Shown here: positions 3,129-15,582 of the stretch, piece by piece
How the letters are laid out: each line of letters starts with the position of its first letter
Position numbering within the stretch: position 1 is the first letter of the stretch
UHGV virus genome: UHGV-0160150
Strand: one strand, 5' to 3'
DNA from: a virus
DNA length: 29,487 nucleotides
Translations under genes and position numbers: made by a program
Notes under the pieces: generated by a model
What the model saw: the letters and a program-made list of their open reading frames with translations, nothing else
What the model was told of the DNA's origin: nothing
Databases searched by the model: none

Positions 3129-3261
3129 TTTTGGGAACTCCTGGCTGATTAAGTATGTCGATAAGGCGTTTCCATCCATCACGTAATTTACGTGTGATTC
3201 GTTCAAGTAAAGATTCGGAAGGGCAGCCAGCAACAGGCCACCCTGCAATGGCATATTGCAT
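3121..3261 (-). CDS. cIII: CIII-like protein (FtsH protease inhibitor, stabilises CII)
   Basis: 46 aa MQYAIAGWPVAGCPSESLLERITRKLRDGWKRLIDILNQPGVPKNG, matching lambda CIII as I recall it. Strong RBS AAGGAG 6 nt before ATG at 3261. Confidence 0.65.
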   Translation of the reverse strand: MQYAIAGWPVAGCPSESLLERITRKLRDGWKRLIDILNQPGVPKNG

Positions 3262-3287
3262 GGTGTGCTCCTTATTTATACATAACG

Positions 3288-3936: not shown

Positions 3937-4299
3937 TTACTTTGTCAGGGGGATATCTCCTTCAGTTCTGACCATTCGCCTTAATACTTTCCTTAAGTCG
4001 ATGTAAAGTTGAATGTCTCCATTTGCTGCGGCATCAGCCATTTTTTGCCTGACAAGCAGTAATGTTTCATACGGCTCAATAAGAATATCGTCATGAGTAA
4101 TTAGGTGAAGCGTTGCCGCATCAACTATTCCTAGAGCTGCGCCAAGTATCAAAAATTCCCTGCTATTTTTGTCGCATGAGGAGATAAGCGTATTTAGCGC
4201 ATACCTAATATTCTTTATAGCTGTTGTTAATGCTGCAATTTCTTCTATGGCGTCTTCTTCAATGAGCTTTTTAAGCTCATATTTTTCTTCCTGACCCAT
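3937..4299 (-). CDS. Hypothetical AT-rich accessory protein (120 aa), immediately downstream of N
   Basis: Track ORF 3937..4383. Internal ATG at 4299 (MGQEEKYELKK) has GAGGT RBS and directly follows the N stop. No TM segment or recognised motif. AT-rich relative to neighbours. Confidence 0.55.
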   Translation of the reverse strand: MGQEEKYELKKLIEEDAIEEIAALTTAIKNIRYALNTLISSCDKNSREFLILGAALGIVDAATLHLITHDDILIEPYETLLLVRQKMADAAANGDIQLYIDLRKVLRRMVRTEGDIPLTK

Positions 4300-4301
4300 A
4301 A

Positions 4302-4571
4302 TTACCTCGCCGTCAGTTGTTTTGATTTCCGGTAGCCTGCCGCGTAAATAGCTACGTTTGGCAGGCAAATACTTCCACTGCATTCATCTGCCTTCTTGCA
4401 GCGAAGGCTTCCGAGTGATGCTGCTTTATCTGCTCTGACGCAACCAGAGAGCTTTAGCGCAATTTTTCGTGCCAATCGCTGTTCTTGCATTGCCTGTTCA
4501 CGTTGAGCCTGTCTGCGTGCTCTGCGGCGATTTCTGGCGTTATCATCAGCCAGATAAGTAACGATTATCAT
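4302..4571 (-). CDS. N: N-like transcription antiterminator (arginine-rich motif)
   Basis: 89 aa from ATG at 4571 (GGAGG RBS, 5-nt spacer). N-terminal ARM DDNARNRRRARRQAQREQ resembles lambda N's QTRRRERRAEKQAQW. First gene downstream of pL/nutL; matching nut sites are present on both operons. Confidence 0.65.
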   Translation of the reverse strand: MIIVTYLADDNARNRRRARRQAQREQAMQEQRLARKIALKLSGCVRADKAASLGSLRCKKADECSGSICLPNVAIYAAGYRKSKQLTAR

Positions 4572-5001: not shown

Positions 5002-5042
5002 TCCCGCATTTCGGCGGGACAATCCCATCAATGTTAAAGAGC
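5002..5042 (-). promoter_or_regulatory. nutL candidate (boxA-like GCTCTTTAACA plus boxB hairpin)
   Basis: Minus-strand transcript reads GCTCTTTAACA, a 12-nt spacer, then TCCCGCCGAAATGCGGGA; the same boxA and boxB occur on the plus strand after cro. Confidence 0.55.
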
Positions 5043-5084
5043 CTGCCAATCTGTTCCGTTTGGCTTCCAGCGTCCTGCTGATGG

Positions 5085-5175
5085 CTTAAAGATAACTTAG
5101 GTTATAGGTGTGGTCAATAACCTAATTTATATTTTATGGTAAATAAGTTATAAGTGATGGATAACAAAGGTATTT
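5085..5175 (-). promoter_or_regulatory. oL/pL: leftward early promoter with ATAAC-N4-GTTAT operators
   Basis: Perfect operator ATAACTTAGGTTAT at 5092-5105; imperfect copies at 5117-5130 and 5161-5174. Minus-strand -35 TTGACC (5112-5117), 17-bp spacer, -10 TATCTT (5089-5094). Confidence 0.5.
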
Positions 5176-5304
5176 TATTTTTGTAAATGTTGCTGATTGA
5201 TTGGTGTTTGAGGGCTTACGTGCGGGGTGAAGGTGTTACCTTTGGCTTGATGCTTGTCTATGATGAGGATGGTTGATTGGGTGGTGAACGGCAGGAAAAG
5301 AAAA

Positions 5305-5330
5305 CCCGGCGCTGAGGCCGGGTGTTTTTA
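5305..5330 (-). terminator. Intrinsic terminator ending the cI operon
   Basis: Hairpin CCCGGC-GCTGAG-GCCGGG with T-rich tracts on both sides (possibly bidirectional), immediately 3' of the 98-aa gene stop. Confidence 0.6.
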
Positions 5331-5624
5331 GTCTTTTCTTTTGCTTAGCATTTCGTCGATTTCTAAGTCAATACGATATTGATCTATTGCTTTTCTCTCG
5401 TTTGGGGTTGGTATTTTATACTGTTCAATTAGATCTGTTGTGTATTTTATTTCATCTAATGTGATTTTTATATCAGAGAGAATCTCTTTTATATCAATTA
5501 GATGCTCTTCTTCTTTTGCGCGATTAGAGCTATGTTCAATCATTTGAGATAGCTTTTTGCTAATGCTTAGCAAAACAAAAAGAATGATGACCAAAACAAC
5601 AACAAAAACTATCAGAAATTCCAT
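5328..5624 (-). CDS. Small membrane-anchored coiled-coil protein (98 aa) in the rexAB-equivalent slot; function unknown
   Basis: N-terminal hydrophobic helix (FLIVFVVVLVIILFVLLSI) followed by a charged, heptad-like region. GGAGGG RBS; 40 bp downstream of cI on the same strand. Markedly AT-rich. Followed at once by the terminator. Confidence 0.6.
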   Translation of the reverse strand: MEFLIVFVVVLVIILFVLLSISKKLSQMIEHSSNRAKEEEHLIDIKEILSDIKITLDEIKYTTDLIEQYKIPTPNERKAIDQYRIDLEIDEMLSKRKD

Positions 5625-5664
5625 TATCCCTCCGCACTTCCGTAAGTCTTCTTCTGATTATCGG

Positions 5665-6372
5665 TTACCAACTATGAGACGACCAGAATACTCTGCCAAT
5701 AATCCTTACGGTTTCATGAAATTCATCTCTATCCATTACTTCATCCGGGTACTCTTCGCGATTTATTGATCTGATTATCACCGATGTAGGGGTGGCGATT
5801 AATGTTTTTACTCGTAACAAATCAGACTGGCAAATAGCGTAGGTTTTACCATCTCTGATTGTGGTATCTTGCGTGTTAACACCAACAACATCGCCATCGT
5901 GAAGCGTTGGTTCCATGCTTTGCCCTACAACCCTAACTAGCTTGGCTGATCTTTCTGATACTCCCATCTTTTTCAGATAGTGCTTTCTGAAAACCAAAGA
6001 GAACTCCGATGATTCCTCTAGCTCGCAGCTACCGCTTCCAGCTGAAAGCGAAACGTTAAGAAGAGGCAACGCAACAAACTCGTCATCGTTTCTTTTAATG
6101 TCTTCCCATACCACAGCTTTTAAAGATGACTCACGGACATTGGATGGTTCTTCATGTGCACCATCCCTCATTTCACCAATACCAGAACTAAGCCATTCAG
6201 GACGCACTTTTAAAGCATTGGCTAATTCAACCATCTTGCGAGATCCGTTTGTTTTACCGGACGACATCTTCTGTATGGCTGGCTGAGATATTCCAACCAT
6301 GTCAGCAAGCTGTGATTGTGATACCCCTGCTGAGCTCATGGCTGCATTTAGTCTTTCTGCGAATGTTTTCAT
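5665..6372 (-). CDS. cI: CI-type prophage repressor (HTH plus LexA/S24-like autocleavage domain)
   Basis: 235 aa from ATG at 6372 (MKTFAERL); the track start at 6402 is TTG. HTH SQSQLADMVGISQPAIQKM; C-terminal S24-like region (GQSMEP serine context, conserved Lys). Apparently leaderless: pRM -10 TAGATT lies 7 nt upstream. Divergent from cro. Confidence 0.85.
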   Translation of the reverse strand: MKTFAERLNAAMSSAGVSQSQLADMVGISQPAIQKMSSGKTNGSRKMVELANALKVRPEWLSSGIGEMRDGAHEEPSNVRESSLKAVVWEDIKRNDDEFVALPLLNVSLSAGSGSCELEESSEFSLVFRKHYLKKMGVSERSAKLVRVVGQSMEPTLHDGDVVGVNTQDTTIRDGKTYAICQSDLLRVKTLIATPTSVIIRSINREEYPDEVMDRDEFHETVRIIGRVFWSSHSW

Positions 6373-6379
6373 ACTCACA

Positions 6380-6450
6380 AATCTATAACTACGGTTATCC
6401 AAAGTAAAATAACAAAGGTTATTGCTATTTTTTATAACTTGAGTTATCTT
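6380..6450. promoter_or_regulatory. oR with divergent pRM and pR; three perfect 14-bp operators ATAAC-N4-GTTAT
   Basis: Operators at 6385-6398, 6409-6422 and 6434-6447. pRM (minus): -10 TAGATT (6380-6385), -35 TTACTT (6402-6407). pR (plus): -35 TTGCTA (6422-6427), 17-bp spacer, -10 TATCTT (6445-6450), the same -10 as pL. Confidence 0.6.
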
Positions 6451-6483
6451 TGGTTATAAGTAATGACCACAAGAGGTATGCTC

Positions 6484-6708
6484 ATGAATTTAGTAATTCA
6501 ACGAGCCTTGAAAATTGTCGGTAGCCAAAAGCGCCTTGCCGACAAGTGTGGTGTAACGCAGCCAGCAGTACACAAATGGCTGAAAGGCGGGTTGGTCTCT
6601 CCAGAGAAAGTTACCGCCATCGTTAACGCCACTGGAGGGCAGATCAAGGCTTACGAAATTCGCCCCGATTTGCCACACCTGTTTCCAAAACCGAATCAGG
6701 CAGCATAA
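6484..6708 (+). CDS. cro: Cro-like HTH regulator
   Basis: 74 aa from ATG at 6484 (AAGAGG RBS); HTH QKRLADKCGVTQPAVHKW. First gene of the rightward operon, divergent from cI. Confidence 0.7.
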   Translation: MNLVIQRALKIVGSQKRLADKCGVTQPAVHKWLKGGLVSPEKVTAIVNATGGQIKAYEIRPDLPHLFPKPNQAA

Positions 6709-6716
6709 GTAACACC

Positions 6717-6760
6717 GCTCTTTAACAGTCATGGTCCTCATTCCCGCCGAAATGCGGGAA
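6717..6760 (+). promoter_or_regulatory. nutR candidate (boxA-like CGCTCTTTAACA plus boxB hairpin TTCCCGC-CGAAAT-GCGGGAA)
   Basis: Same boxA and boxB as the minus-strand nutL site; located between cro and cII as in lambda. Confidence 0.55.
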
Positions 6761-10200: not shown

Positions 10201-10812
10201 ATGCGAATAAAAAAAACAATTGATCACGATGAGCTTCTGTCAACATTATCATATGACTCAGAAACAGGAATATTTAAATGGCTAAAAACAAATTCAGTAG
10301 TAAGAGTAAAAGGTAGTATTGCTGGAGGTGTTAGTGGTGGTTATATATGCATTAGCATAAATAATGTTTTGTATTATGCGCATAGGCTTGCTTGGTTCTA
10401 TGTATACAAAAAATGGCCTCCTAAGTTTATTGATCATGTAAATGGGAACAGACTTGACAATAGGATTTCAAATCTAAGACTGGCAACAGAGGAGCAGAAT
10501 GCAAGAAACATTGTAGGTAATAGGTTAAACACATCCGGTGCGATTGGAGTGTCTTGGGATAAGACAACTGGCAGGTGGAAGTCTTATGTTGGTTATAAAA
10601 ATAAGACAATATCGTTAGGGTATTTCGATAGCAAAGAAGATGCAGCATTCATAGCAGCACTAGCAAGAAAGAAACTATATGGAACTTATGCGAGTAAAGC
10701 ACTTAATTGCGAGCATGAGCTTTTATCTCAATTTAATAATGATGAGGATAAACTTGCGGAATATCTTAAGGAAAAATCTAAAAGGACTCGAAAGCGTGTT
10801 AAAAAAAGATAA
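10201..10812 (+). mobile_element. HNH homing endonuclease with AP2-type DNA-binding domain (free-standing)
   Basis: 203-aa ORF. N-terminal LLSTLSYDSETGIFKWL, HNH core IDHVNGNRLDNRISNLRLATEEQN, AP2-like segment GVSWDKTTGRWKSYVGYKNKTISLGYFDSKEDAA. Strongly AT-rich island between the replication and nin modules. Confidence 0.75.
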
Positions 10813-14334: not shown

Positions 14335-14658
14335 ATGAAGATGCCAGAAAAAAATGACCTGTTAGCCGCCATTCTCGCGGCAAAGGAACAAGGCATCGGG
14401 GCAATCCTTGCGTTTGCAATGGCGTACCTTCGCGGCAGATATAATGGCGGTGCGTTTACAAAAACAGTAATCGACGCAACGATGTGCGCCATTATCGCCT
14501 GGTTCATTCGTGATCTTCTCGACCTCGCCGGACTAAGTAGCAATCTCGCTTATATAACGAGCGTGTTCATCGGCTACATCGGTACTGACTCGATTGGTTC
14601 GCTTATCAAACGCTTCGCTGCTAAAAAAGCCGGAGTAGAAGATGGTGGAAATCAATAA
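14335..14658 (+). CDS. S: Holin S (class I, dual-start holin/antiholin)
   Basis: 107 aa with MKM dual-start N-terminus and three TM segments; matches lambda S as recalled. Confidence 0.9.
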
Positions 14659-15118
14659 TCAACGTAAGGCGTTCCTCGATATGCTGGCGTGGTCAGAGGG
14701 AACTGATAACGGACGTCAGAAAACCAGAAATCATGGTTATGACGTCATTGTTGGCGGAGAGCTATTCACTGATTACTCCGATCACCCTCGCAAACTTGTC
14801 ACGCTAAACCCAAAACTCAAATCAACAGCAGCCGGACGTTACCAGCTTCTTTCCCGTTGGTGGGATGCCTATCGTAAGCAGCTTGGCCTGAAAGACTTCT
14901 CTCCGAAAAGCCAGGACGCTGTGGCACTGCAACAGATTAAAGAGCGTGGCGCTTTACCGATGATTGATCGCGGTGATATTCGTCAGGCTATCGACCGTTG
15001 CAGCAATATCTGGGCTTCACTGCCGGGCGCTGGTTATGGTCAGTTCGAGCATAAGGCTGACAGCCTGATTGCAAAATTCAAAGAAGCAGGCGGAACGGTC
15101 AGAGAGATTGAGGTATGA
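14642..15118 (+). CDS. R: Endolysin R (lytic transglycosylase)
   Basis: 158 aa; start overlaps the end of S as in lambda; sequence as lambda R. Confidence 0.9.
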
Positions 15119-15582
15119 GCAGAGTCACCGCGATTATCTCCGCTCTGGTTATCTGCATCATCGTCGGCCTGTCATGGGCTGTTAATCATTACCGTGATAA
15201 CGCCATCGCCTACAAAGAACAGCGTGATAAAAAAGTCAGTGAGCTGAAGCAGGCGACCGCCACCATTACTGACATGCAGCAACGCCAGCGTGCTGCTGAT
15301 GCACTCGATGCTAAATACACGAAGGAGTTAGCTGATGCGAAAGCTGAAAATGATGCTCTTCGGCGCAAGCTTGATAATGGTGGCAGGGTGCTCGTCAAAG
15401 GAAAATGCCCTGTGCCATCCTCAGCCGAAACCTCCAGCGCCTCCGGCATGGGCAATGATGCCACCGTCGAACTCTCTCCAGTTGCTGGACGAAACGTTCT
15501 CGGTGTCCGGGACGGAATTATCCGCGACCAAACAGCACTGAGAACGCTTCAGGAATACATCAGGACGCAATGCCTGAAATAA
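15115..15582 (+). CDS. Rz: Rz (inner-membrane spanin)
   Basis: 155 aa; N-terminal TM and coiled coil; ATGA overlap with the R stop. N-terminal half lambda-like, C-terminal half apparently divergent. Confidence 0.85.
15335..15541 (+). CDS. Rz1: Rz1 (outer-membrane lipoprotein spanin), embedded in Rz in another frame
   Basis: 68 aa with signal peptide and lipobox (LIMVAGC), proline-rich mature part; fully nested in Rz. Confidence 0.75.

Follow-up and report, generated by a model that had tools for sequence, protein, structure and literature searches.

ORF98, a small protein encoded in the cI-tIMM accessory slot of lambdoid prophages: a likely accessory gene of the lysogen with a probable role in the exclusion of other phages

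Small membrane proteins of phages and prophages, including HK97 gp15, T4 Imm and lactococcal Sie2009, can block genome entry without death of the cell, and the lactococcal sie genes are small and AT-rich, specify an N-terminal transmembrane (TM) segment and lie beside the repressor gene. Lambda CIII, a short helical peptide that inhibits FtsH on the cytoplasmic side of the inner membrane, has a part in the decision for lysogeny. Lambda RexA and RexB, a 279-aa sensor and a 144-aa four-pass membrane protein, are encoded between the cI stop codon and the terminator tIMM, on the cI strand and ahead of oL/pL. In two papers, both of which cite Degnan et al. 2007, the interval between cI and N is described as a hotspot of mosaic diversity and of accessory and defence loci such as rexAB and bstA (PMC8585504, PMC7067206), and the repressor promoter as among the most active in the prophage (PMC8585504, PMC7067206). 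BstA of the Salmonella prophage BTP1 is the product of a single gene just downstream of the repressor, in a position conserved across diverse prophages, and bstA is transcribed from the repressor promoter with its own Rho-independent terminator behind it (PMC8585504, PMC7067206). According to Owen et al., BstA localises to sites of phage DNA replication and acts by abortive infection, with a DNA element for self-immunity (PMC8585504). SieA of P22, a small inner-membrane protein of the same entry-blocking kind, is by itself necessary and sufficient for superinfection exclusion (PMC10883804). The logic of such a locus is already established, and the subject of this analysis is a small protein family in a known kind of locus; a literature search found no publication on this family and none naming either WP_000394868 or PHROG 18389.

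The window, i.e. the whole stretch of DNA that was analysed, comprises 29,487 nt of the virus genome UHGV-0160150 and corresponds to the IMG/VR contig UViG_3300045988_010512. It belongs to a lambdoid phage whose virion module, with genes for the portal, coat and ejection proteins, is P22-like and whose early region is typical, with N, ral, cIII and its thermoregulator RNA, kil, a Sak4-like annealase gene, SSB and abc2. The cI-type repressor gene (5665-6372, minus strand; 235 aa from the ATG at 6372) encodes an HTH_3 domain and a Peptidase_S24 autopeptidase and ends with TAA at 5665-5667. The operator region oR, with three ATAAC-N4-GTTAT operators in the pRM/pR region, is at 6385-6447, and the oL operators of the same consensus (5092-5105 and 5117-5130, minus strand) overlap pL-like hexamers, TTGACC-17-TATCTT, at 5117-5089 on that strand; six matches to the operator consensus were found against 0.63 expected by chance. 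On the far side of the slot lies the N antiterminator gene (4302-4571, minus strand; PF25694, E = 2e-15), the first of the pL operon. The original prediction, made from the letters of this DNA, placed between cI and oL/pL a 98-aa reading frame co-oriented with cI and beginning 40 nt past its stop codon, with a GGAGGG ribosome-binding site (RBS), a much higher AT content than cI and a strong hairpin terminator directly behind it, and the coordinates bear out each of these features. ORF98 has 98 codons (5328-5624, minus strand, ATG at 5624), follows a 40-nt spacer (5625-5664) on the same strand as cI, and is preceded by the Shine-Dalgarno sequence GGAGGG (5628-5633, minus strand), 3 nt 5' of the start codon. 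Its GC content is 30.3%, versus 43.4% for cI and 48.1% for the whole window, which places it in the lowest 0.04% among all 297-nt stretches of the window, and the terminator stem begins 4 nt past its stop codon.

The intrinsic terminator (5295-5323, minus strand) consists of a 7-bp stem with 6 G-C pairs at 5304-5323, followed on the minus strand by TTTCTTTTC, and it scored on both strands, so that by its sequence it would be bidirectional. Positions 5297-5323 are identical at 27 of 27 nucleotides to lambda DNA just downstream of rexB, i.e. tIMM, and likewise (27/27) to the annotated 'Timm' of HK244, a wild lambda-immunity phage. ORF98 thus sits in the same slot as lambda RexA/RexB to the nucleotide, from the cI stop codon to tIMM, on the cI strand and ahead of oL/pL. 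The initial description had the gene insulated by a terminator of its own, and this part has to be given up because the 27/27 identities make the terminator common to lambdoids rather than private; it is the common boundary of many alternative cargos and, to judge from its sequence, the shared lambdoid terminator of the pRM, pRE and pLit transcripts. In three relatives a small convergent gene encoding 68-74 aa lies between the terminator and oL (L002, 6324-6530; L003, 4383-4607; L007, 2402-2611, a DUF2767 gene; all minus strand), and there the hairpin terminates both convergent genes, which fits its bidirectional form; positions 5131-5294 of the window hold no such gene. The same tIMM also ends a three-gene cargo behind a LexA-family repressor in E. 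coli CM2 (L005, 3053-4394), made up of a HigB-family toxin, an HTH protein and a 134-aa protein without assigned function.

Natural variation at the locus shows that the contents of the slot are exchanged as a unit. In an E. coli prophage (L004), window positions 5663-6730 are matched at 98.8% identity and 5024-5323 at 94.3%, so that cI/oR/cro on one side and oL to tIMM on the other are near-identical to the window, while the interval between the cI stop codon and tIMM holds about 770 bp of cargo unrelated to ORF98; positions 5324-5662 (minus strand) are therefore a swappable cassette, absent from an otherwise near-identical immunity region. The reciprocal case is a Citrobacter freundii prophage in which DNA homology to the window is restricted to 5634-5301, from the RBS through the terminator, and begins only 10 nt upstream of the ORF98 ATG; the repressor ahead of the Citrobacter homologue is 78% identical to lambda cI but 22-23% identical to the cI of the window. 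With its position between the cI stop codon and tIMM and upstream of oL/pL, its replacement by unrelated genes and a base composition that differs from that of the neighbouring core genes, ORF98 is a cargo of the lambdoid cI-tIMM accessory ('moron') slot, and its assignment to the rexAB slot in the original prediction stands on the 27/27 terminator match, the lambda-cI-like repressor of Citrobacter and the cargo swap. The placement behind the repressor is likewise that of bstA, with no sequence similarity between the two proteins.

A broader view of the slot was obtained with an exact scan of IMG/VR for the 27-mer of tIMM, which returned at least 120 loci, with a cI gene upstream in 110 of the matches listed. 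Among these 110 loci the cI stop codon and tIMM are separated by 341 to 2016 nt and in no case adjoin directly, and the slot holds at least 24 cargo layouts drawn from at least 40 protein clusters. ORF98 is the smallest cargo among the matches listed (a single gene in a 341-nt slot) and the commonest (18/110), a frequency that includes redundant sampling and partly reflects one successful prophage lineage from which most copies come. All ORF98 copies among the IMG/VR matches listed accompany one cI type, that of the window, which is represented by 19 loci and has ORF98 in 18 of them; every other common cI type occurs with 9-11 different slot lengths, and the pairing of the window's cI type with ORF98 could be clonal sampling or real linkage. 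Lambda RexA/RexB is the cargo in one of the 110 listed loci, and these genuine Rex proteins from the same slot elsewhere are unrelated to ORF98. Other slot cargos among the matches listed match the PADLOC candidates PDC-M24A/B and PDC-M63B, many are proteins without identified function, and a TM segment is present in 7 of the 40 cargo protein clusters. Still others, recognised from sequence, we take to be HigB/HigA-like and HicA/HicB-like modules. The contents of the slot as a whole thus include RexAB, toxin-antitoxin (TA) modules and candidate defence systems (see also PMC8585504). These other cargos (HK244 genes 04/05, HigBA-like, HicAB-like, PDC-M24 and PDC-M63) have boundaries identical to those of ORF98 and are interchangeable with it where the immunity regions are otherwise near-identical, although their sequences are unrelated and most are modules of two or three genes. 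One recurrent cargo consists of two genes, one for a soluble protein (about 145 aa) and one for a coiled-coil protein (118-206 aa) with a TM helix at its C-terminus; it is found in HK244 (L020, 1399-2450) and in IMG/VR clusters 9/10, 12/13 and 31/32 (e.g. L087, L140 and L033), in three divergent versions, and the single version tested had no PADLOC match.

The association of ORF98 with the repressor gene extends well beyond close relatives. In 10 of 10 Enterobacterales lambdoid loci, which represent every relative in this order with a readable context (33-77% identical to ORF98) plus the window itself, an HTH+S24 repressor gene on the same strand precedes the gene at a distance of 0-54 nt, and N comes after it. 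Across the relatives the partner Cro proteins are of three types (lambda-Cro, P22-Cro and plain HTH). Among the nine related loci compared, window included, the GC content of the ORF is below that of cI in all nine, a purine-rich Shine-Dalgarno-like RBS precedes the start codon in all nine, and a hairpin with a T-run follows the ORF in eight. Pairwise identities of the ORF and of cI are uncorrelated between loci (Spearman rho = -0.04, p = 0.79), with extreme pairs in which an ORF identity of 77% goes with a cI identity of 23%, and one of 33% with 72%; the linkage is therefore to the slot, that is to expression, rather than to one repressor, and ORF98 as a direct partner of cI was judged unlikely for the same reason. 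In three loci the gap between cI and the ORF is 0-1 nt, which suggests translational coupling of the two. By its sequence the 40-nt spacer of the window has no room for a separate conserved promoter. A promoter belonging to ORF98 itself was considered and set aside, as the consensus-like site in the 3' end of cI is within chance (three promoter-like sites found versus 4.3 expected) and the upstream DNA is not conserved. From the shared strand, the gaps of 0-54 nt and the lack of conserved DNA beyond 10 nt upstream, we infer that ORF98 is co-transcribed with cI.

The predicted protein has a simple build. Residues 3-21 (FLIVFVVVLVIILFVLLSI) form one purely hydrophobic segment with a mean Kyte-Doolittle value of 3.67, followed by KK; a linker at approximately residues 23-41 varies in length and sequence across the family; and residues 42-97 form a conserved coiled-coil hairpin in which residues 42-69 are four perfect heptads and YKIPTP at 69-74 is the turn. 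The original prediction of one N-terminal TM helix and a charged, coiled-coil-like remainder agrees with this. Conservation is concentrated in the last 55 or so residues, with the pattern IKYTTDxIEKYKLPxxxERxxIDxIxIDxEI and invariant Y69, P72, D81 and E88. AlphaFold2 gave a helix at 2-68, a loop at 69-73 and a helix at 74-97, the same with and without an alignment, at pLDDT 86 and 81 and a pTM of only about 0.3. No K or R precedes the hydrophobic segment in any of 17 family members, and the 15 residues after the helix contain one to four; these charge flanks fit the positive-inside rule, and a single-pass N-out/C-in topology is accordingly predicted from that rule only. A signal peptide or lipoprotein was rejected, as there is no positive n-region and no Cys, and the hydrophobic core of 19 residues is followed by KK. 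A role as holin or spanin was also rejected: the lysis genes are at 14335-15582 (holin PHROG 126, endolysin PHROG 90), ORF98 is 9 kb away, and it matched no holin or spanin family in Pfam or PHROG.

No family of known function accounts for the protein, in agreement with the first reading, in which it was not recognised: profile and structure searches gave no known domain, defence model or informative fold, and only generic coiled coils matched. Among solved structures a sequence search matched only designed coiled coils, and these weakly. Matches in Pfam, NCBIfam and PADLOC were at noise level and driven by the TM segment or the coiled coil; the sole match in PADLOC-DB 2.0 was to ZorB3 (E = 0.0089) through the TM region alone, and no homology to SieB (PF14163) or other known families was found in Pfam or PHROG. 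The description of ORF98 as a small membrane effector is thus retained in its first half only: the membrane anchor holds up, and the sequence looks less like an effector than like a passive anchor that carries a conserved binding module in the cytoplasm. The anchor is featureless and evolves faster, the polar hairpin behind it evolves slowly, and this combination suggests a tether with a binding module rather than a channel or an enzyme.

ORF98 is aligned over its entire length with PHROG 18389 (E = 5.2e-62, residues 1-98 on profile positions 1-98 of 98), which has no annotated function. The family is small: among 5.8 billion proteins a word-indexed search picked out 11 close clusters, from E. 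coli and Citrobacter, and 1.8 billion representatives searched exhaustively with a profile yielded no more than 14. A profile of the C-terminal domain added members from Yersinia, Enterobacter and Serratia, all matches being 73-113 aa long and of the same build, with no fusion of this domain to other domains among them. Three distant homologues (26-35% identity) lie in contexts without recognisable phage genes (L006, 5001-5351, Pelagicoccus sp.; L018, 4001-4342; L019, 1229-1570) and retain the motif YKLP...ER..LD; no S24 repressor or recognisable phage gene is beside them and their neighbours are uninformative; the homologue in L019 follows a gene for a SHOCT-domain protein. The Citrobacter homologue is 77% identical to ORF98 in protein and 81% in DNA, and the comparison gives a dN/dS of 0.16 overall at a synonymous divergence of 0.8. 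This value and the full-length PHROG match identify ORF98 as a real gene rather than a chance reading frame. The ratio is 0.35 for codons 1-43, the anchor and linker, versus 0.067 for codons 44-98, and the hairpin is under strong purifying selection. Approximately 98 of 5,426 complete E. coli genomes (about 2%) carry the cassette with the ORF intact, including that of O26:H11 strain 11368, and the copies in complete E. coli genomes are mostly at least 99% identical. In strain 11368 the prophage that carries the cassette is P22-like, and its annotation shows no stx between Q and the holin gene. Among 50,697 deposited phage genomes only one has ORF98, the Stx1a-converting phage Stx1a_10051, a separate record in which the gene is unannotated. 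Two E. coli variants depart from the usual build: P0010, of 75 aa, has the TM anchor replaced by an unrelated N-terminus, and P0005 has a 5-aa deletion (TDLIE) inside the conserved helix.

Taken together, the most likely reading of ORF98 is an accessory gene of a small family that is expressed in the lysogen and probably serves to exclude other phages. Its function is here read from location and build only, and the exclusion or abortive-infection reading from position alone. We assign a probability of roughly 0.4 to the specific proposal that the product is an exclusion factor made in the lysogen, tethered to the inner membrane and binding its target on the cytoplasmic side. ORF98 would be read from cI transcripts, initiated at pRM in the lysogen and at pRE during establishment and both ending at tIMM, and its strong RBS would drive translation of a protein that spans the inner membrane once and exposes a very short N-terminus on the outside. 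The flexible linker of variable length would keep the conserved acidic hairpin in the cytoplasm, where it would probably oligomerise, and the tethered hairpin may then capture or obstruct a target on the inner side of the membrane, leaving the lysogen protected from other phages. A membrane-tethered binder seems most likely, rather than an enzyme or a pore, and we favour an effect that spares the cell, exerted as the genome enters or just afterwards, over a suicide response. By analogy, the identity of tIMM, the natural swap of cargo and a slot shared with RexAB, TA modules and PADLOC candidates speak for exclusion, as does the build of the protein, and a membrane component made in lysogens, as ORF98 would be, is a feature of the Rex system as well. 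Against exclusion it must be said that the family has no experimental or homology link to defence, and that purifying selection on the hairpin and the distant homologues outside recognisable prophages are more in keeping with a conserved target in the host than with a phage target that evolves fast. The well-studied blockers of genome entry, moreover, work mostly via periplasmic or multi-pass parts, and the bulk of ORF98 is predicted to be cytoplasmic. This placement also separates it from the SieA-type proteins, to which it has no homology, and SieA is encoded elsewhere in the P22 genome.

In the strongest alternative the target of the tethered hairpin is a conserved factor of the host at the inner membrane, and other phages are not affected; candidates would be the FtsH complex, a transporter or the division machinery, and the protein would tune how lysogeny is established, maintained or induced, or else some host trait. 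We regard this as a serious rival while finding exclusion the more probable. A hairpin dN/dS of 0.067 is in its favour, the retention of the motif by distant homologues that lie outside lambdoid prophages points to a target with wide conservation, and the strict linkage to cI, with gaps of 0-1 nt in three loci, suggests that the protein is made whenever cI is made, including from pRE. A cytoplasmic, membrane-proximal placement, as predicted, would suit targets of the FtsH type, and CIII serves as a model for how such a protein might work. The phage already has cIII with its thermoregulator RNA, however, and ORF98 has no similarity to CIII or other known modulators; cIII is separately present in the window, belongs to the pL operon and is not made in an established lysogen. 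The low GC content, discrete mobility and free exchange with unrelated cargo point to a dispensable accessory gene rather than a core regulator, and the uncorrelated ORF and cI identities speak against modulation by direct binding of cI.

It is unlikely, although the slot and its expression logic are the same as for RexAB, that ORF98 is a one-protein analogue of RexA/RexB, in which the hairpin would sense a phage product, oligomerise, cluster the TM helices and so damage the membrane and kill the cell. The coiled coil could drive oligomerisation, and membrane proteins do occur among the slot cargos (the 7 of 40 clusters in the matches listed). In the TM helix, however, no residue is polar or charged, and conservation within the protein is lowest there, as is typical of an anchor and not of a channel lining, and 98 residues leave little room for both a sensor and an effector. 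ORF98 is a single protein with a single pass where RexAB comprises two, and it matched neither RexB nor any effector model: neither Pfam nor PADLOC gave a match to RexAB, and no sequence or profile similarity was found. That the gene is an AT-rich remnant, a passenger without current function in a recombination hotspot, is very improbable, since the absence of a detectable domain, the rarity of the family (the single deposited phage genome) and truncated or deleted variants such as the anchorless P0010 and the 5-aa deletion of P0005 are outweighed by a dN/dS of 0.16 at a synonymous divergence of 0.8, by a length, RBS and architecture conserved down to 26% identity across several genera and by an intact ORF in the 98 or so complete E. 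coli genomes.

A more far-reaching suggestion, offered tentatively, is that the family represents a new one-protein mechanism, in which a membrane-tethered hairpin coupled to cI engages a conserved target on the inner side of the membrane, either to exclude phages in an undescribed way or to set lysogeny or induction. Should this be true, an effect on lysogeny or induction would span many enterobacterial lambdoid prophages, and the strict linkage to cI across unrelated repressors would reflect a need for repressor-coupled dosage. The slot downstream of the highly expressed repressor operon is where RexAB and BstA were found, ORF98 is compact and conserved, and natural cargo swaps of the L004 type provide a ready isogenic control; either a minimal way of excluding phages or a new input into the control of lysogeny would come to light.

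Several other features of the window were recorded along the way. Directly downstream of N, a 148-aa ORF (3937-4383, minus strand) matches PHROG 7374, whose function is not annotated, and occupies the position at which the related prophages L007 and L015 have sieB-type exclusion genes. An HNH endonuclease gene (10201-10812, plus strand; PHROG 99) with a GC content of 34.8% follows the primase-helicase gene (50.9% GC) and resembles a homing-endonuclease insertion; L004 also has an HNH gene, after cII. An isolated perfect copy of the operator consensus (ATAACGCGCGTTAT) is at 278-291, at the left end of the window and distant from oL and oR. The lambda cIII thermoregulator element (3216-3274, minus strand) scored 88.5 bits and is the sole Rfam match in the window at gathering score.
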